A stretch of DNA of 64,000 bases from NCBI RefSeq assembly GCF_050320075.1, contig NZ_CP190018.1, one strand, 5' to 3'. Under the pieces are notes generated by a model, which did not search any database, was not told the DNA's origin, and saw only the letters and a list, made by a program, of their open reading frames with translations. Origin of the DNA: Escherichia coli (GTDB taxonomy: Bacteria; Pseudomonadota; Gammaproteobacteria; Enterobacterales; Enterobacteriaceae). This document shows, one piece after another, positions 4,514 through 53,017 of the stretch. The stretch's first letter is position 1. Every line of letters starts with the position of its first letter. Both the position numbers and the translations under genes were made by a program.

Positions 4514-5023
4514 AGTGTATTCCTTATTGTTGCTTAGTTAGGGTAGTCACTATATTTGCGACTGAGCTGGTCGCTATTTTTAACCAGGCTGGAAAATTGA
4601 GTCAATATATCGAAAGCGGTAGTCGGCGGGTGTAAGTATGTAATGATGATGCTGCACTGGTGTTGAATATTATTCACGCCAAATTTTCCTTATTGAGCAA
4701 CGTCGTCGCAAGTGGCCTCAATGATTTTAGACCATTATCAGAGGTCCGGGGCGGCAGGGAGAGATTTAGTGCTGTGGAATATTGTGGTGCTGATGAATAT
4801 TTATATCCCGGATTGGTAGAGAAAAAGCTTTTTCCATGCACTTTTTTTGCAAATATTTCTGTATGGGAGGCGGTTTTGTTGCAGATTAATTCATAAAGAA
4901 ATGCATTTGGGTGTTGGCTGGAAGAGTCGCGGGTAGATGTTATTGTGCCAGCAGGGGCAGGGTAAGGTACTGTATCGATATGCTTTGGCAATTGCATGTG
5001 CCGCAGAGGGAGATGAAATGCCA

Positions 5024-8030: not shown

Positions 8031-9449
8031 ATGCAGGAAAATATATCAGTAACCGATTCATACAGCACCGGGAATGCCGCACAGGCAATGCTGGAGAAAC
8101 TGCTGCAAATTTATGATGCTAAAACGCTGGTGGCGCAGCTTAATGGTGTGGGTGAGAATCACTGGAGCGCGGCAATTTTAAAACGTGCGCTGGCGAATGA
8201 CTCGGCATGGCACCGTTTAAGTGAGAAAGAGTTCGCCCATCTGCAAACGTTGCTACCCAAACCACCGGCACATCATCCGCATTATGCGTTTCGCTTTATC
8301 GATCTGTTTGCCGGAATTGGCGGCATCCGTCGCGGTTTTGAATCGATTGGCGGACAGTGCGTGTTTACCAGCGAATGGAACAAACATGCGGTACGCACTT
8401 ATAAAGCCAATCATTATTGCGACCCGGCGACGCATCATTTTAATGAAGATATCCGCGACATCACCCTCAGCCATAAAGAAGGCGTGAGTGATGAGGCGGC
8501 GGCGGAACATATTCGTCAACACATTCCTGAACACGATGTATTACTGGCGGGTTTTCCTTGTCAGCCATTTTCGCTGGCTGGCGTATCGAAAAAGAACTCG
8601 CTCGGGCGGGCGCACGGTTTTGCCTGTGATACCCAGGGCACGCTGTTCTTTGATGTGGTGCGTATTATCGACGCGCGTCGACCGGCGATTTTTGTGCTCG
8701 AAAACGTCAAAAACCTGAAAAGCCACGACCAGGGTAAAACGTTCCGCATCATCATGCAGACGCTGGACGAACTGGGCTATGACGTGGCCGACGCAGACGA
8801 TAACGGGCCGGACGATCCGAAAATCATCGATGGCAAACATTTTCTGCCGCAGCACCGTGAACGCATCGTGCTGGTGGGTTTTCGTCGCGATCTGAATCTG
8901 AAAGCCGATTTTACTCTGCGTGATATCAGCAAATATTTCCCTGCACAGCGAGTGACGCTGGCGCAGCTGCTGGACCCGATGGTCGAGGCGAAATATATCC
9001 TGACGCCGGTACTGTGGAAGTACCTCTATCGATATGCGAAAAAACATCAGGCGCGCGGTAACGGCTTCGGTTATGGAATGGTTTATCCGAACAATCCGCA
9101 AAGCGTCACGCGTACGCTGTCTGCGCGTTATTACAAAGATGGCGCGGAAATTTTAATCGATCGCGGTTGGGATATGGCCACGGGTGAGAAAGACTTTGAC
9201 GATCCGCTGAATCAGCAACATCGCCCACGTCGGTTAACGCCTCGTGAATGCGCGCGTTTAATGGGGTTTGAAGCGCCGGGAGAAGCGAAATTCCGCATTC
9301 CGGTTTCGGACACTCAGGCCTATCGCCAGTTCGGTAACTCGGTGGTCGTACCGGTCTTTGCCGCGGTGGCAAAACTGCTTGAGCCAAAAATCAAACAGGC
9401 GGTGGCGTTGCGTCAGCAAGAGGCACAACATGGCCGACGTTCACGATAA
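8031..9449 (+). CDS. dcm: DNA-cytosine C5-methyltransferase Dcm
   Basis: 472 aa; motif I FAGIGG, catalytic PCQ motif ([11 protein letters not shown]), ENV motif (FVLENVKNL). Confidence 0.95.
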
Positions 9450-9900
9450 GGCCACTCGCAGCAAAAATATGCGCGCGATTGCTACGCGTGATACGGCGAT
9501 TGAGAAGCGCCTCGCCAGTCTGTTAACCGGGCAGGGCCTGGCATTTCGCGTTCAGGACGCGGATCTCCCCGGACGCCCGGATTTTGTCGTTGATGAATAT
9601 CGCTGCGTGATATTTACCCACGGCTGCTTCTGGCATCATCATCACTGCTATCTGTTTAAAGTGCCTGAGACACGAACCGAGTTCTGGCTGGAGAAGATAG
9701 GTAAAAATGTTGAGCGCGATCGCCGCGATATCAGTCGCTTGCAGGAACTCGGCTGGCGCGTATTGATTGTCTGGGAGTGCGCGTTACGTGGGCGCGAGAA
9801 GCTGAAGGATGAAGCGCTTACCGAGCGTCTGGAAGAGTGGATCTGCGGCGAAGGTGCCAGCGCGCAGATCGACACGCAGGGGATTCATTTACTCGCTTGA
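9430..9900 (+). CDS. vsr: Very-short-patch repair endonuclease Vsr
   Basis: 156-aa frame starting [22 protein letters not shown]..., overlapping the 3' end of dcm by 20 nt in another frame (the ORF-track upstream extension is ignored). Confidence 0.93.
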
Positions 9901-10809
9901 TGCGTCCTGAATAACTGGCGCAACTACGGGTTTTGCCGGGAAGAGATATTTTCCCAACGTGACCAGTACCACCGCGAAGACAATTACGCCGAGCGCCAGC
10001 CATTCAATCTTCGACAGCGTCTCTCCGCCCAGTCCCGTACCCAGCAAGACCGCGACCACCGGGTTAACGTAGGCGTAGCTGGTGGCGAGAGCCGGACTGA
10101 CGTTGCGGATTAAATACATATAAGCGTTAATGGCGATAATCGAACCAAACAGCGCCAGATAGCCGACCGCAAGGAAGCCTGAAAGGGAAGGGAGCGCCGT
10201 CAGTTTTTCACCTGCAATCATCGACGCGATCATTAACACCACGCCTGCTGCCAGCATCTCAATCGCACCCGCCATCATCCCTACAGGTAATGTAATGCGC
10301 GAGCCATAAACCGAGCCAAACGCCCAGCTAATCGAGCCGATTAAAATCAGAATCGCGCCCCACGGATTGCCGCTTAAATTTCCACCGCTATTGAGCATGA
10401 TGATTCCGGCAAGCCCAATGGCGATACCCACCCATTCCAGTTTGCGCGTTTTAATGCCAAATAGGCGGCTGAAGCACAAGGTAAAGAGAGGCACGGTTGC
10501 AACCACTACGGCGGCGATGCCGGAAGGAACATTTTGATGTTCGGCAACCGTTACCATGCCATTACCGACAGCCAGCAATAACAGGCCAATCAGCGCGGCA
10601 TTGAGCAGCGGACGTAGCGGGGGGAGTTTGTGTCCGCGCAGTAGCAAAAATGCCAGCAATAAAATACCGGCTGCCAGGAATCGCACGCCCGCCATCATTA
10701 ACGGCGGCCAGCTTTCCACGCCAATCCGAATGACAAAATAGGTTGAGCCCCAAATGATATACAACGCAAACAACGCGCCAAAAAGCGGTAACAACTGGCG
10801 GAAACGCAT
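9889..10809 (-). CDS. yedA: EamA/DMT-family inner-membrane transporter YedA
   Basis: 306-aa polytopic membrane ORF with duplicated EamA-like halves; 3' end overlaps the vsr 3' end by 12 nt (convergent). Confidence 0.9.
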   Translation of the reverse strand: MRFRQLLPLFGALFALYIIWGSTYFVIRIGVESWPPLMMAGVRFLAAGILLLAFLLLRGHKLPPLRPLLNAALIGLLLLAVGNGMVTVAEHQNVPSGIAAVVVATVPLFTLCFSRLFGIKTRKLEWVGIAIGLAGIIMLNSGGNLSGNPWGAILILIGSISWAFGSVYGSRITLPVGMMAGAIEMLAAGVVLMIASMIAGEKLTALPSLSGFLAVGYLALFGSIIAINAYMYLIRNVSPALATSYAYVNPVVAVLLGTGLGGETLSKIEWLALGVIVFAVVLVTLGKYLFPAKPVVAPVIQDASSE

Positions 10810-10981
10810 AATCCCTCACGGTGGAAATAAAAAGGTGGTTCATAGTAAACGTGAAAATCATTCTGCTGGCGAGAGATATAATTGCACTTGATTGTTAAAA
10901 AAATGTTGACCTGTGAAGCAAGTATCAGAGCTGCCGTTTTTGCTTCATACTTACACCCTTCAACAATAAAAATGAGAGGGA

Positions 10982-48386: not shown

Positions 48387-48462
<76 letters not shown>

Positions 48463-48516
48463 GTTTAAAAGGCATCGGCGTCAAGCGGATGTCTGGCTGA
48501 AAGGCCTGAAGAATTT

Positions 48517-48590
48517 GGCGCGTTAACAAAGCGGTTATGTAGCGGATTGCAAATCCGTCTAGTCCGGTTCGACTCCGGAACGCGCCTCCA
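48517..48590 (+). tRNA. cysT: tRNA-Cys (anticodon GCA)
   Basis: 74-nt GGCGCGTTAACAAAGCGGTTATGTAGCGGATTGCAAATCCGTCTAGTCCGGTTCGACTCCGGAACGCGCCTCCA. Confidence 0.95.
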
Positions 48591-48602
48591 CTTTCTTCCC
48601 GA

Positions 48603-48689
48603 GCCCGGATGGTGGAATCGGTAGACACAAGGGATTTAAAATCCCTCGGCGTTCGCGCTGTGCGGGTTCAAGTCCCGCTCCGGGTACCA
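48603..48689 (+). tRNA. leuZ: tRNA-Leu (anticodon UAA), with long variable arm
   Basis: 87-nt GCCCGGATGGTGGAATCGGTAGACACAAGGGATTTAAAATCCC...GGTACCA. Confidence 0.95.
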
Positions 48690-48763
48690 TGGGAAAGATA
48701 AGAATAAAATCAAAGCAATAAGCAGTGTCGTGAAACCACCTTCGGGTGGTTTTTTTGTGCCTG
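48634..48763. repeat. Left direct repeat (attL-like): 3' part of leuZ plus its downstream terminator
   Basis: 130 bp identical, apart from one indel, to 52766..52896; covers the anticodon-loop-to-3'-end of tRNA-Leu and the hairpin AAACCACCTTCGGGTGGTTTTTTTGT. Confidence 0.85.
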
Positions 48764-48941
48764 AAATTCACGCCCTGTGCATATCCTGTGCTCACGGGGG
48801 GCAATGAGCTGCAATCTCAAGCCCGGCAATGCCGAATCGAACGTGTCGCCTCCAGCATAGAGAACCAGGCCGCTTTGCCTGTTTTCCGGTACTCTTCCGG
48901 GAAGGGGGGCCAGCTGAGCAAGCTATAATGCTCTGGCCACC

Positions 48942-49673
48942 CTAAGCACAAAGTTGCTTAATTCGTGCAATCACCTCATCTCTGTATTTCTGGTGTCCGC
49001 GCATAGCCCTTGGATGGGCTATCCTGAAACAGATTGTATGACCTGTTTTGAACTCCCATAGCTTCCCCGGAATGACTGAAGAAGTCTCATAGCCGCCTAG
49101 CTCAGTAAGCACCTGTTTTATGATGTAGTCTGTTCTCCGGGCTCCGGATGCAAAGATGGTGAAATCAGGCTCAAGGTGTTTAATTTGTACCGCCAGCAGT
49201 TTCAGCGAGGCTAATATGACTTCCTGCACTTCATTTTGAGGGCGATTGAGAGGGGGCAGTCCGTCGTAATCCCACGCCAGTAGATTGGCATACACGATAG
49301 CCTGAGGAGGAATATTAAGCTCCCGGGCCAGCCGGAAGTGATACTGCGTGAAGCGGCTACGTGATTTGTGGTTCGTGGTGCCATCATTTTGTGCCGGAAG
49401 ATGTTTCCTGTAACGATCTACAGCCTCTTCAACCACCTGCCCGATGGTGACGTCAGGTATAAGTCCCAGAACCCGTGATATCGTATTCTTACCATTCAGC
49501 GTATTCCAGCCAGCGGTTTCACGCCCAACCAGCATGATTTTTACCGGTGAGTGCCAGTATTCTTCAAAGGGCACGGGTAAAAAGACGCCTGAGTATTTAT
49601 CCTCATTCAGGTTAAATGACTGGGCGTCAACTTCCTGTAATATCCGTTTGTATGCGTCTAATAGTCTTTCCAT
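48942..49673 (-). CDS. Hypothetical protein, possible UDG-superfamily (DNA glycosylase-like) fold
   Basis: 243-aa ORF inside the islet; beta-strand plus Gly motif (VKIMLVGRETAGW) near the N-terminus and C-terminal HP motif (FRIAHPRAMRG), similar in position to UDG motifs 1 and 2. Weak, motif-level only. Confidence 0.35.
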   Translation of the reverse strand: MERLLDAYKRILQEVDAQSFNLNEDKYSGVFLPVPFEEYWHSPVKIMLVGRETAGWNTLNGKNTISRVLGLIPDVTIGQVVEEAVDRYRKHLPAQNDGTTNHKSRSRFTQYHFRLARELNIPPQAIVYANLLAWDYDGLPPLNRPQNEVQEVILASLKLLAVQIKHLEPDFTIFASGARRTDYIIKQVLTELGGYETSSVIPGKLWEFKTGHTICFRIAHPRAMRGHQKYRDEVIARIKQLCA

Positions 49674-49723: not shown

Positions 49724-50440
49724 ATGATATCAATCAGATACATGAGGATAAATATGCAAAAATCCTTCCGATTCACCAATTCATCCATCAAAGCCCTTCC
49801 GGCAAACACAGATACCCGATCTACAGAGCTTGAGGTATCTGATACCGAAGTCATTGGCCTCAAATGCCTCTCAGGTCGAACGGGCAACAAACGTTTCCTC
49901 CTGCGCTACACATTCCACGGTACCAAAAAAAGTATCAGTATTGGCAGATTCCCTGAAATCGATGTGGGAACAGCCCGTCAGATAGCTCGTCGTCACAAGG
50001 AGGCGATTGCACTGGGAAATGACCCTAAGGCAGAGCGCGATAATTATCGGGCGATGCCAACGCTTAGTGAGTTTTTTCACCAGACCTATGTTCCGTTCAT
50101 CAAGCGCCATAAAAAGTCCTGGGATAAGGATGTTCAGCGTTTCACGCAATACATTGAACCTCGTCTGGGGAAGATACGTTACTGCGACCTTCAGGCCCGG
50201 GAAATCCAGCAGGTGCTTTTTGACATGCTTGAGGGCCGTATTCACGGCCAGCAGTATGCACCGTCTACCTGTAACAGGGCACTGGCTATTCTGAAAACCA
50301 TGGGCCGTTATGCGCTACGACAGGATGTCCTGGAGAAGAATGAAGCCGATAAGATCCCTTTGCTGAAGGAGAATAATCACCGGACGCGCTTTTTTGACGC
50401 TGATGAGATCAGGAGAATCCTTGATGCTGCGTCTCGATAA
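49724..50440 (+). pseudogene. Truncated tyrosine recombinase (P4-type integrase N-terminal arm-binding plus SAM-like region; catalytic domain absent)
   Basis: 238-aa ORF with integrase N-terminal signature (FTNSSIKALP..., GLKCLSGRTGNKRFLLRYTFHGTKKSISIGRFPEIDVGTARQIARRHKEA) but ending before the catalytic R..HxxR..Y domain; adjacent to a tRNA att site. Confidence 0.7.
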
Positions 50441-50454
50441 CCCAATAAAGCTGC

Positions 50455-50490
<36 letters not shown>

Positions 50491-50491
50491 C

Positions 50492-50535
<44 letters not shown>

Positions 50536-50655
50536 TTCTAAGGCTTGCTTTAATGCTAAGGCTAAATGATTTTGATATAGTAAGTTCATACTTAGCGGGC
50601 AGATGCCCACAGACATAGTACCGAAAATAAATCAGGTATTCTGCGAGATTTCAGT

Positions 50656-51984
50656 ATGAAAATAGCCAATATTAGACTTACGAATTTTAGATGTTTTGAC
50701 GAGTTTAGTGTTGATTTTGACCCAAGACTTACAGTTCTCATTGCTCGTAATGGTAGAGGGAAATCTACTCTGCTTGACGCGGTAGCATTAGCTTTAGGAC
50801 CATTTTTAACTCGTTTGCCAGGGATCAAAGGGCTAAGTTTCAAGAAAACCGATTTCCGGATCGACGAAAATGGAGACCAGCCGTCCTATATGCGAGTAAG
50901 TTGTACTAGTACAACGGGTATAACTTGGGATAGAACTGAGCGAAGAGATCTGACAAAAAAAACGTTAGGTAGCATCCCCCAAGGGGCAGCCCTTAAAGCC
51001 TTGAATGATTACGTCGATACGTTCATTGATTCTCACAATGAGAATAAACACTATACATTGCCAATTTTTGTTTATTACGGAACTGGGCGTGGAGTGTTTG
51101 ATATACCACTCAGAAAACGTGCATTTAACAAGCATTTTTCTCGATTTGAGGCCCTTGACGGTGCTCTTGAAAGCAAAACAAATTTCAAAAGATTTGTGCA
51201 ATATTTTTATTTTCTTGAAGAAAAAGAAAATAGATTACAGAAAGAGCAACGATCATTTGAAGTAGAAATCCCTGAATTAAGGGCAATACGCTTGGCTGTG
51301 GAAAAATTACTGCCAGAGTTTAGCAATATTCGCTCGGCAGTACCTGCTGGAATTATGGTCGATTGGTGTAAGCCTATTGGAAATGGTGAAACAACCATAC
51401 AAAAGCTAAGGATTGAACAACTTAGTGATGGCTATAGAACAACTTTAGCTATGGTTATGGATATTGCAGCAAGAATGGCAGAAGCTAACCCCTATTCGAG
51501 TGATCCTCTAAGTTCTGAGGGGATAATTCTCATTGATGAGGTAGATCTGCATCTGCATCCGGAATGGCAACGTGAGTTTCTCCCTAGATTAATCAACGTT
51601 TTCCCTCATCTTCAGTTCATAGTATCGACGCATTCACCATTTATCATCCAGTCTGTCAAAGAGGGGATGTTGGTCGATCTTGATAAAGATGACATTTCGG
51701 ATAGCCCCTCTTTGAATAAAGAACTCAGCATCGAAGATATTGCTGAGGGTGTAATGGGAATGGAAAAAGTTCAACGAAGTGAATTGTTTAACAAACAAGT
51801 CGCAGTTTCAGATAGATATTATCAGTTACTGAATGAAGGAAGAAGTGAAAGCGACCCAGAGGTAAGGAAGCTCTCCGCTGAGCTTGATAAATTGGAAGAG
51901 TTTTTTGGAGATAACCCAGCTTATGTAGCCTTACTTCGTGCTGAGCGCCGAAAAATAATGGGGACACAAGGAAGTAAACAATGA
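50656..51984 (+). CDS. ABC/AAA-type ATPase (AAA_15/AAA_21-like), candidate Septu PtuA
   Basis: 442 aa; Walker A LIARNGRGKSTLLDAV, Walker B/D-loop IILIDEVDLHLHP, H-loop-like FIVSTHSPFI; AT-rich; stop overlaps start of downstream HNH gene (ATGA). Confidence 0.7.
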   Translation: MKIANIRLTNFRCFDEFSVDFDPRLTVLIARNGRGKSTLLDAVALALGPFLTRLPGIKGLSFKKTDFRIDENGDQPSYMRVSCTSTTGITWDRTERRDLTKKTLGSIPQGAALKALNDYVDTFIDSHNENKHYTLPIFVYYGTGRGVFDIPLRKRAFNKHFSRFEALDGALESKTNFKRFVQYFYFLEEKENRLQKEQRSFEVEIPELRAIRLAVEKLLPEFSNIRSAVPAGIMVDWCKPIGNGETTIQKLRIEQLSDGYRTTLAMVMDIAARMAEANPYSSDPLSSEGIILIDEVDLHLHPEWQREFLPRLINVFPHLQFIVSTHSPFIIQSVKEGMLVDLDKDDISDSPSLNKELSIEDIAEGVMGMEKVQRSELFNKQVAVSDRYYQLLNEGRSESDPEVRKLSAELDKLEEFFGDNPAYVALLRAERRKIMGTQGSKQ

Positions 51985-52592
51985 GACCTGTAAATCGACC
52001 TCCATATAATGGAACTGTTTATGCAGATTATAAATCATTTTTACCTTCGCTATTAACTGCATATGGCGGATATTGTTCTTATTGTGAGCGGCCGGATAAG
52101 GTTGATGTGGAGCATGTTGTCCCAAAAACGCATGCACCACTTTTGATTACTGATTGGAACAATTTTTTACTGGGTTGCCCTCGCTGTAACCGAGATTTTA
52201 AAAAAAGTAAGAATACTCAACGTATAGGCTATGTTTGGCCAGATGTTGAGAATACATTTAATTTATTGACATACCATCCAGATGGTAGAGTAGAGCCTAA
52301 GCAGGGGCTGTCTGCCGGACTAACTGCGCAGGTACAGGCTACTATTGATTTGGTATGTCTTGATGATGGTAACCAAGTACAAAAAACTTTAAATCTTGGT
52401 AGAAGGAGATATTTTGGACTCGCGAATAAGGCCAAGACTCTTTATCTGAGTAATTTATTGAGTATTGATGAGGTCATGGATATGGCTCAGTTAGGATATT
52501 GGTCGATCTGGTATAATGTGTTTCAAGGTGTACCTGCTGTCCTTTCAGCTTTGGAGAATTCCTATCCTAATACCGCTATAAACCGCCCATGA
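51981..52592 (+). CDS. HNH endonuclease, candidate Septu PtuB
   Basis: 203 aa; HNH/zinc-finger motif CSYCERPDKVDVEHVVPK...NNFLLGCPRCNRDFK (C-x2-C ... H ... N ... C-x2-C); translationally coupled to the upstream ATPase. Confidence 0.7.
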   Translation: MRPVNRPPYNGTVYADYKSFLPSLLTAYGGYCSYCERPDKVDVEHVVPKTHAPLLITDWNNFLLGCPRCNRDFKKSKNTQRIGYVWPDVENTFNLLTYHPDGRVEPKQGLSAGLTAQVQATIDLVCLDDGNQVQKTLNLGRRRYFGLANKAKTLYLSNLLSIDEVMDMAQLGYWSIWYNVFQGVPAVLSALENSYPNTAINRP

Positions 52593-52765: not shown

Positions 52766-52896
52766 ATTTAAAATCCCTCGGCGTTCGCGCTGTGCGGGTT
52801 CAAGTACCCGCTCCGGGTACCATGGGAAAGATAAGAATAAAATCAAAGCAATAAGCAGTGTCGTGAAACCACCTTCGGGTGGTTTTTTTGTGCCTG
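52766..52896. repeat. Right direct repeat (attR-like): partial copy of leuZ 3' part plus terminator
   Basis: 131-bp copy of 48634..48763 with a single-nucleotide insertion (CAAGTACCCGCT versus CAAGTCCCGCT); lacks the tRNA 5' half, so it is not a functional tRNA. Confidence 0.85.
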
Positions 52897-53017
52897 CAAC
52901 TTGTCGTTACACCCTCCTTAATTTTTAATCACCGGCAAAGCCACTCAAAAAGTATCTCTGTTACGGACCGACATGTAAGATAGGTGCTGGCGAGTTGAGA
53001 TCCACAAGGAAAAGCGT

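Follow-up and report, generated by a model that had tools for sequence, protein, structure and literature searches.

A probable stand-alone Septu type I anti-phage system carried by a leuZ islet of Escherichia coli

Two overlapping genes within the window, the whole stretch of 64,000 nucleotides of Escherichia coli DNA analyzed here, very probably form a stand-alone Septu type I anti-phage system, with ptuA and ptuB co-transcribed, coupled and carried as cargo of an islet at the tRNA gene leuZ. We observed directly the gene structure, the membership of both proteins in their families, the intact catalytic motifs, the fold of PtuB, the conserved pairing of the two genes and their mobile context. 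The cassette is a further member of an already known system, one that PADLOC and other standard tools would flag automatically; the RefSeq annotation gives neither gene a Septu name. The locus comprises the following features:

48387-48689: cluster of tRNA-Gly, tRNA-Cys and tRNA-Leu(taa) genes, from the tRNA search
48603..48689, plus strand: tRNA-Leu(taa) gene leuZ, the last gene of glyW-cysT-leuZ (ARAGORN and Rfam tRNA; identical locus in RefSeq)
48634..48766, unstranded: left direct repeat, consisting of the 3' 56 nt of leuZ and 77 nt downstream including the terminator hairpin (repeat families D1 and D2)
48942..49673, minus strand: conserved islet backbone gene of 243 aa, with a uracil-DNA-glycosylase-superfamily fold, outside Septu
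49724..50440, plus strand: N-terminal fragment of a tyrosine integrase, a pseudogene of 238 codons with the catalytic C-terminus absent and weak XerC/XerD matches
50455..50540, unstranded: end remnant, ~85 nt, of ISEc31 (IS3 family), with Megablast matching ISEc31 copies in over 1000 genomes
50573..50581, plus strand: candidate extended -10 element TGATATAGT, ~75 nt upstream of ptuA, proposed from reading the sequence
50656..51984, plus strand: ptuA, an ORF with an ATG start, 442 aa, Septu type I ATPase of the ABC/SMC type
51981..52592, plus strand: ptuB, an ORF with an ATG start, 203 aa, Septu type I nuclease of the HNH type whose C-terminal domain is helical
52766..52899, unstranded: right direct repeat, a partial leuZ 3' end plus terminator, which forms the right boundary of the islet (repeat search)

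The ORF list gives exactly the two reading frames described in the initial annotation. Both lie on the same strand and are joined by a 4-nt ATGA overlap, through which ptuB appears to be translationally coupled to ptuA. PtuA carries a Walker A motif (GRGKST, residues 33-38, with Lys36), an ABC signature (LSDGYR, residues 256-261), a Walker B motif (IILIDEV, residues 290-296, with Asp294 and Glu295), the sequence LHLHP at residues 298-302 and the sequence STHSP at residues 324-328, in which His326 is the H-loop histidine. PtuB has zinc-type motifs (C32-x2-C35, and C66-x2-C69 followed by N70) and HNH-type residues (E44-H45 and W59-N-N61). Every motif that had been named for the two proteins was found and proved invariant among homologues. 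In an alignment of 16 diverse homologues, K36, LSDG (256-259), D294/E295 and H326 of PtuA did not vary; nor did C32, C35, E44, H45, N61, C66, C69 and N70 of PtuB in an alignment of diverse homologues, and the invariance of the catalytic residues extended to a PtuA/PtuB pair from a Bacillus plasmid. Because of this invariance, the motifs are not chance matches. The parts expected to mediate interaction, residues 354-442 of PtuA and the helical domain of PtuB (helices 136-192), are also present. The AT-richness remarked on earlier was borne out, with a GC content of 0.40 in ptuA and ptuB versus 0.49 across the window.

Profile searches placed both proteins in the Septu families from end to end, in agreement with the PtuA/PtuB-like identity first proposed. 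PtuA matched the PADLOC PtuA1 model PDLC00267 with E=2e-190 over residues 1-432 (profile positions 1-430 of 438), and PtuB matched the PtuB1 model PDLC00315 with E=6e-61 over residues 1-200. The Pfam families expected for the pair were recovered as well, AAA_15 and AAA_21 (together with AAA_23) for the 442-aa protein and HNH (E=6.5e-6) for the 203-aa protein. The impression that the ATPase is short for a PtuA turned out to be mistaken: its homologues typically have 430-445 aa and the best PADLOC profile has 438 positions, and it is the PtuA proteins associated with retrons that reach about 550 aa. When the PDB was searched by sequence, 8ee4, the Septu PtuA of E. coli, was the top match of PtuA (residues 1-353, E=5e-43), and the PtuAs of type I-A retrons ranked after it. 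A profile of the PtuB family detected both the retron I-A PtuBs (E=2e-15 to 5e-12) and the Septu PtuB 8ee7 (E=7e-10), the latter via the C-terminal region that follows the HNH domain. An AlphaFold (AF2) model of PtuB, with a pLDDT of 96, had significant matches in the PDB to nine PtuB chains only, the top TM-score being 0.73, to 8eea_G ('E. coli Septu (PtuAB) complex').

The placement of the cassette in a tRNA-Leu islet was upheld by the tRNA genes, by the direct repeat and by a reconstruction of the empty site. The islet is 4.1 kb long and is flanked by an att-type duplication of ~134 nt of the leuZ 3' end, with yecA (at 53018) beyond the right copy. Collapsing the repeat in silico gave a contiguous match to K-12 MG1655 and to 3792 of the 5426 complete E. 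coli genomes, and in genomes with an occupied site the match on the yecA side begins exactly at the equivalent of position 48634. The integration target of the islet is leuZ. The integrase fragment bears the RefSeq note 'missing C-terminus', and an intact integrase of ~400 aa is present in other E. coli. The ISEc31 remnant, which matches the end of the ISEc31 transposase gene, separates the integrase fragment from the cassette, ~115 nt upstream of ptuA. We conclude that the islet has been immobilized since its arrival by an IS-associated truncation of the integrase. Sister islets at the same leuZ site carry other defense cargo, including Hhe and DUF262 pairs; a literature search on the leuZ integrase and defense found nothing relevant among the papers listed.

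The 243-aa protein encoded between leuZ and the integrase fragment gave no match in Pfam, PADLOC, NCBIfam or PDB sequence and profile searches. Fold comparison found the alpha/beta fold of uracil-DNA glycosylases (UDG), with no Brig1 entry among the matches listed. The invariant residues of the protein, G50-R-E-T-x-G55-W-N-T and A219-H-P-R222, sit where we would presume UDG motifs A and B to be. About 8% of the complete genomes of E. coli keep this gene beside the integrase.

The cassette is carried by 40 of the 5426 complete E. coli genomes (0.7%), and all of these copies are chromosomal. They are at least 99.9% identical to one another, so that within the species uninterrupted frames are poor evidence of selection. 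A PtuB-type partner was found directly downstream of ptuA in six contexts (E. coli, Pectobacterium, a JGI genome, Proteus, Vibrio and Ferrimonas); the homologue in the JGI genome is 84% identical, and the Ferrimonas pair is a divergent form. The flanks of the pairs are unrelated among those genomes, and in Vibrio the vicinity includes SieB, SIR2 and KAP NTPase genes. In tblastn searches with the PtuA sublineage, no plasmid homologue reached 60% identity, the best being a Bacillus one at 36%, and all homologues in phage records were below 37%. The sublineage represented by PDLC00267/PDLC00315 is widespread in Gammaproteobacteria. A literature search on WP_001595859, a protein of the cassette, found no paper.

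Could the cassette be what remains of a type I-A retron, an orphaned PtuAB effector of the Ec78/Eco7 type left behind when the RT and ncRNA were lost? In pairwise sequence comparison the PtuBs of I-A retrons (E=3.5e-7) are nearer to its PtuB than 8ee7 of the stand-alone type is (E=0.96, not significant), the PtuA and PtuB models of NCBIfam exist only as retron Ec78 ones and both match the cassette, and an IS-associated deletion occurred immediately upstream of it. The NCBIfam matches, however, fall far below the equivalog cutoffs (240.1 versus 500 bits for PtuA with NF041760, 46.7 versus 150 bits for PtuB with NF041761), and the one to NF041760 is limited to PtuA residues 195-421. The retron models of PADLOC, ATPase_I-A (E=1.7e-74) and HNH_I-A (E=1.2e-12), match much worse than PtuA1 and PtuB1. 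In the alignment with 22bu_B, a PtuA of the retron type, residue 5 of PtuA falls on residue 69, and since the alignment starts there the retron-specific N-terminal extension is absent from the PtuA of the cassette (PMC12819146). Four ORFs of at least 200 aa are found in the islet, none of them an RT, and the Pectobacterium, Proteus and Vibrio orthologues have no adjacent RT. Rfam returned the three tRNAs only, two matches to STnc130 at the duplicated terminator, below threshold (E=0.84), being taken as chance. We rejected a retron origin on the lack of an RT ORF, the lack in Rfam of structured RNAs besides tRNAs and the NCBIfam scores, and regard it as highly unlikely. It is likewise highly improbable that the genes form a repair pair like RecF, RecN or SbcC, or an addiction module that stabilizes the islet, rather than an anti-phage system. 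ATPase-nuclease pairs can be toxic, retron PtuAB being a toxin (PMC12819146), and the N-terminal P-loop region of PtuA is like that of RecF, Rad50, SbcC and SMC. These matches nevertheless span residues 1 to ~50-67 only, at 14-39 bits against cutoffs of at least 172 bits; RecF, Rad50, SbcC and SMC match the first ~45-50 residues around the P-loop, so the strong non-defense homology against which the initial annotation had cautioned was not seen. Full-length matches were exclusively to Septu models, the pair is accessory in E. coli (0.7% of genomes), AT-rich and found in varied contexts, and phage defense has been demonstrated for members of the Septu family (PMC13096335; PMC12819146). Weak matches to AriA (E=1.7e-25), MAD3, OLD and GajA could point to another ATPase-nuclease defense family, such as PARIS AriAB, Gabija, an OLD-family nuclease or a MADS component, but they are confined to the ABC ATPase head that these proteins have in common, mostly residues 1-45 or 272-354. 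Neither a Toprim nor a DUF4435 protein accompanies the ATPase, whose partner is of the HNH type, and AriA comes only 25th in the PADLOC ranking for the ATPase, after 23 PtuA models and the retron model ATPase_I-A; we consider such an assignment extremely unlikely.

A Septu system may also have fallen silent. That the genes are an inactive relic in this host, intact only because the islet is recent and deprived of their promoter by the IS-associated deletion, seems to us improbable. The truncated integrase and the ISEc31 end 115 nt upstream of ptuA would fit such a history, as would the near-identity of the 40 copies, which leaves no time for decay, and the IS3 element that already interrupts the cassette in one genome. 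Moreover, a strict scan for sigma-70 promoters and terminators upstream of ptuA found no convincing promoter, with fewer sites than in shuffled sequences, and did not call TGATATAGT. Against this, the extended -10-like TGATATAGT survives in the ~115 nt that separate the ATG from the IS remnant, 39 of the 40 copies are uninterrupted, and, cloned together with 300-bp flanks, other Septu systems of E. coli function from their own promoter (PMC13096335). The upstream regions of ptuA here and of its Pectobacterium orthologue have the block AATGATTTTG(A/C)TATAGT in common. Because TGATATAGT is conserved with the Pectobacterium orthologue despite otherwise unrelated flanks, the comparison suggests that the ptuAB module may have kept its own promoter.

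The stand-alone Septu system that we favor can be compared with several characterized relatives. The PtuAB complex of E. coli ATCC 25922 (8ee4, 8ee7, 8eea) is a DNA-nicking enzyme that ATP inhibits and that assembles into an inflammasome-like hexamer (PMC12819146); its target is reported to be DNA, the genomic DNA of phages in particular (PMC11555353). Like the cassette, it has a two-gene layout of ATPase and HNH protein with no RT. Residue 1 of our PtuA aligns with residue 1 of 8ee4, and after the LSDG signature neither protein has Gln, the position being Tyr260 in the cassette and Leu in ATCC 25922 (PMC12819146). In contrast, the two PtuA proteins are about 31% identical over 352 aligned columns, their lengths differ (442 versus 465 aa for PtuA, 203 versus 243 aa for PtuB, cassette first), and the best PADLOC PtuA subfamily is PDLC00267 for the cassette and PDLC00310/00278 for ATCC 25922. 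The solved ATCC 25922 complex is a hexamer with a 6:2 PtuA:PtuB stoichiometry.

Septu Ec-B88, the 'Septu I' from clinical strains of E. coli (PMC13096335; bioRxiv 10.1101/2022.08.21.504612), shares with the cassette the host species, the ptuA-ptuB order, the Walker A Lys, the Walker B Asp/Glu and the HNH His. It requires its Walker A/B and HNH residues, cleaves tRNA-Tyr in the variable loop, behaves as an abortive infection system and protects against Demerecviridae and some T-even phages (PMC13096335). Ec-B88 is the best functional precedent for the cassette. Compared by residue numbering alone, however (K36/D294/H299 in PtuA and H45/N61 in PtuB of the cassette, versus K43/D316/H321 and H75/N91 in Ec-B88), the cassette belongs to a different protein lineage, and because of this difference the trigger and substrate of Ec-B88 are not confidently transferable to it. 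The cassette represents a Septu I sublineage distinct from the experimentally studied E. coli systems; the earlier suggestion of a divergent subtype holds in that sense, but not with regard to the length of the ATPase, which is normal. The PtuAB proteins of type I-A retrons (Ec78/Eco7, Ec83) have an ATPase core and an HNH nuclease homologous to those of the cassette, but the cassette has no RT, ncRNA or msDNA, the retron PtuA has an extra N-terminal extension of ~65 residues, and PtuA of the cassette, without it, is about 110 aa shorter. Conversely, pairs on plasmids of the Bacillus cereus group (e.g., B. mycoides p419) show full-length homology of both proteins across phyla, with the same gene order and gene overlap; PtuA is 36% identical over 98% of its length, and PtuB, which is longer in Bacillus (235 aa), is 29% identical (E=5e-22).

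Homology with characterized Septu and retron PtuAB allows a mechanism to be proposed. PtuA would self-assemble by way of both the ATPase heads and the C-terminal extension, and the assembly would grip PtuB via the helical C-terminal domain of the latter. [quoted passage not shown] The nuclease activity of PtuB would be kept silent by the nucleotide state of PtuA until a phage cue lifts this restraint; the infected cell would then be arrested and phage production blocked. Expression, oligomeric state, trigger, substrate and an anti-phage phenotype may each be expected of the cassette by this analogy. Two separate proposals strike us as not very likely: that the trigger or substrate of the sublineage differs from both known Septu modes, i.e., ATP-gated DNA nicking and cleavage of the tRNA-Tyr variable loop, and that the 243-aa gene encodes a Brig-type anti-phage glycosylase. 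If it did, the backbone of the leuZ islet would itself be a defense gene.

The locus shows a tRNA-linked integrative islet serving as an exchangeable slot for defense genes, later fixed by IS-associated decay. For the family, two conflicting PtuAB substrates, DNA and tRNA-Tyr, are presently in the field, and a third lineage from E. coli itself, compact (442 + 203 aa) and easily cloned, would help to find the determinants of substrate and trigger by comparison. For the organism, the cassette enlarges the defense repertoire of E. coli by a rare and distinct variant of Septu I.

Judged from sequence, the two-gene cassette is a bona fide Septu type I cassette of a separate sublineage, lying within a decayed leuZ islet. 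The ORF listing returned both genes where the initial annotation had placed them, the ATGA overlap between them is present in the sequence, and a motif scan located every ATPase and HNH motif that had been named:

50656..51984, + strand: ptuA, 442 aa
51981..52592, + strand: ptuB, 203 aa
PtuA residues 33-38: Walker A, GRGKST, with Lys36
PtuA residues 256-261: ABC signature, LSDGYR
PtuA residues 290-296: Walker B, IILIDEV, with Asp294/Glu295
PtuA residues 298-302: LHLHP
PtuA residues 324-328: STHSP
PtuB: C32xxC35, E44-H45, N61 and C66xxC69-N70

In alignments, the PtuA motif residues were invariant in 16 PtuA-like proteins, including a Bacillus plasmid homologue, and those of PtuB in 34 PtuB-like proteins, with the PtuB of the Bacillus plasmid compared separately from this set. 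The segment is also AT-rich, as had been noted (GC of 0.40 for the cassette vs 0.49 for the window).

PtuA matched the PADLOC-DB Septu type I model PtuA1 PDLC00267 end to end (E=2e-190, 631 bits), and PtuB did so with the type I model PtuB1 PDLC00315 (E=6e-61). The Pfam checks proposed earlier gave AAA_23, AAA_21 and AAA_15 in the 442-aa protein and HNH in the 203-aa protein. Against solved structures, PtuA scored best with 8ee4, an E. coli Septu PtuA (E=5e-43 over residues 1-353), and the retron I-A PtuAs ranked next. As a single sequence PtuB found retron I-A PtuBs (E=3.5e-7), and its family profile also reached the Septu PtuB 8ee7 (E=7e-10) via the region after the HNH domain. Moreover, an AlphaFold2 model of PtuB (pLDDT 96.1) had only nine significant PDB matches, all of them PtuB chains; 8eea_G ('E. 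coli Septu (PtuAB) complex') gave the best TM-score, 0.73. The end-to-end PADLOC matches and the PtuB-chain fold matches bear out the proposed Septu PtuA/PtuB-like architecture.

Two other identities were considered. As a repair protein of the RecF, Rad50, SbcC, RecN or SMC type, PtuA was rejected: the matches cover its first ~45-50 residues, the longest (to one Rad50 model) running to residue 67, and fall far under the cutoffs. As effectors of an Ec78-type retron, both proteins scored below the NCBIfam equivalog cutoffs (PtuA, 240 bits vs 500; PtuB, 46.7 bits vs 150), and the PADLOC retron-specific models scored much below the Septu models. Alignment with stand-alone PtuA starts at residue 1, whereas retron-type PtuA aligned only from its residue 69; thus, PtuA lacks the retron-type N-terminal extension, which contacts the RT and the ncRNA (PMC12819146). 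Neither the ORF listing nor the RefSeq annotation of the islet contains an RT ORF, and an Rfam scan of the islet region returned three tRNAs only, with no retron ncRNA match. We take the cassette to be stand-alone, without retron linkage.

PtuA is ~31% identical to its counterpart in the stand-alone Septu of E. coli ATCC 25922, which fits PADLOC PDLC00310/00278 best (461/451 bits) vs 243 bits for PDLC00267. Two groups have tested Septu I systems in E. coli, and in these the Walker A Lys is K43, the Walker B Asp is D316 and the PtuB His is H75, the corresponding residues here being K36, D294 and H45. The low identity, the other PADLOC subfamily and the residue numbering place the cassette in a separate Septu sublineage, for which we found no experimental test in the literature. 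Thus, of the earlier suggestion of a divergent subtype with an ATPase on the short side, the divergence stands but the shortness does not: among 2766 homologues scored, the close ones are 430-445 aa long and the best-matching PADLOC profile has 438 positions, so that 442 aa is a normal length.

The ATCC 25922 PtuAB forms an inflammasome-like hexamer that nicks DNA and whose nuclease is inhibited by ATP (PMC12819146), and its reported target is DNA, phage genomic DNA in particular (PMC11555353). Ec-B88, another tested E. coli Septu, gives an abortive-infection-like outcome from which phages escape via extra tRNA-Tyr supply (PMC13096335), and tested Septu systems need both the ATPase and the HNH residues (Ec-B88: PMC13096335). 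Directly after LSDG, retron PtuA, which hydrolyses ATP, has Gln, and the non-hydrolysing stand-alone PtuA has Leu (PMC12819146); the residue here is Tyr260, an exact likeness to neither. Sequence places PtuB nearer the tRNA-cutting proteins of retrons and fold score places it nearer its ATCC 25922 counterpart, neither difference being decisive. By homology, a PtuA oligomer would restrain PtuB, and a phage cue would free the HNH nuclease from this restraint.

The tRNA-Leu islet was also recovered, with tRNA-Leu(taa) and a bracketing repeat; the features before the cassette, in order, are:

48387-48689: tRNA-Gly, tRNA-Cys and tRNA-Leu(taa)
48634-48766 and 52766-52899: ~134-nt direct repeat, duplicating the last 56 nt of leuZ and the downstream terminator
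48942-49673, - strand: 243-aa ORF, 'hypothetical protein', adjoining the islet integrase
from 49724: integrase fragment, 238 codons (RefSeq, 'missing C-terminus')
after the integrase fragment, to 50540: ~85-nt remnant of an ISEc31 end

The att-type duplication is unusually long, reaching 77 nt past the leuZ 3' end. Its terminator hairpin gave identical sub-threshold Rfam matches to STnc130 at 48733-48761 and 52866-52894 on the - strand (26 bits vs a gathering score of 55, E=0.84), which we treated as chance. Once the repeat was collapsed to a single copy, the sequence matched contiguously in 3792 of the 5426 complete E. coli genomes, and it recreated the layout of K-12 MG1655 (98.6% identity), to which the cassette is foreign, as had been claimed. 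The leuZ site appears to be occupied by something in the ~30% of genomes without a contiguous empty-site match; in those sampled, the yecA-side match begins exactly at the first base of the repeat, the sign of an occupied site. The arrangement suggests that an IS-associated deletion took the integrase C-terminus and any cargo between the integrase and ptuAB. The islet has probably been shortened and, because its integrase is truncated, would no longer excise by itself.

The 243-aa protein had no match in Pfam, PADLOC, NCBIfam or PDB sequence searches. It matches phrog_29550, and its family comprises 180 matches, with several gammaproteobacterial genera among the 120 listed. Foldseek with its AlphaFold model (pLDDT 88) found the uracil-DNA-glycosylase superfamily with probability 1.0 and modest TM-scores, and we confidently predict a fold of this superfamily. 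The invariant family motifs GRETxGWNT (50-58, from G50) and AHPR (219-222, H220) presumably lie where the two UDG motifs are expected. Known UDG-like anti-phage glycosylases are Brig1 (PMC11078745), Brig2 (bioRxiv 10.1101/2025.10.29.685425) and Brig3. The protein may be an anti-phage glycosylase of the Brig type, or it may belong to the biology of the islet itself.

The pair recurs in unrelated settings, with a ptuB-type gene immediately downstream of ptuA each time. In Pectobacterium (PtuA 85% identical) the two genes overlap by 4 nt and lie between unrelated housekeeping genes; in a JGI genome (84%) they are part of an island with CbtA/CbeA. The pair lies between a Ribonuc_L-PSP family gene and pyrI/pyrB (PyrI and OTCase domains) in Proteus mirabilis (73%), and beside TraH/TraG and SieB, SIR2 and KAP NTPase genes in Vibrio splendidus (63%). 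At a Ferrimonas balearica locus (L004, 1857-8153), a PtuA homologue (50-52%) follows hsdM and hsdS in a type I restriction-modification operon; its divergent 255-aa partner has no Pfam hit, but hhalign aligned it with the PtuB profile (probability 96%, E=4e-9). A 347-aa HNH_2 protein also follows these two. A Bacillus mycoides plasmid pair shows 36% (PtuA) and 29% (PtuB) identity. The ptuAB pair is thus a mobile module. Also, the block AATGATTTTG(A/C)TATAGT 5' of ptuA is common to E. coli and Pectobacterium, the flanks being otherwise unrelated; the conserved block, AATGATTTTGnTATAGT, lies at 50550-50581 in the window and ~4925-4950 in the Pectobacterium locus L005. Within it, an extended -10-like TGnTATAGT, read at 50573-50581, was not called by a strict promoter scan upstream of ptuA; it is likely the module's own extended -10 promoter, carried along when the module moves.

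Of the 5426 complete E. coli genomes, 40 carry the cassette, always on the chromosome and at least 99.9% identical, under the RefSeq names 'AAA family ATPase' and 'HNH endonuclease' only; searches of plasmids and phage records turned up no close copy. One of the 40 is split by a ~1.3-kb IS3-family transposase (NZ_OZ501674.1, 2202642-2206155), so inactivation of the system does occur. The Septu cassette is callable by standard defence-finder tools. The 243-aa gene with an intact ~400-aa integrase occupies leuZ in 432 complete E. coli genomes. In two sampled examples (locus positions ~9000-19700), the cargo was DUF2787, two DUF262 proteins and the anti-phage protein Hhe (L007, NZ_CP050040.1), or DUF2787, DUF726, an HTH regulator and other genes (L006, NZ_AP027676.1). 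The islets at leuZ thus form a family whose cargo is interchangeable and in part defensive, and the site behaves as an exchangeable defence slot.
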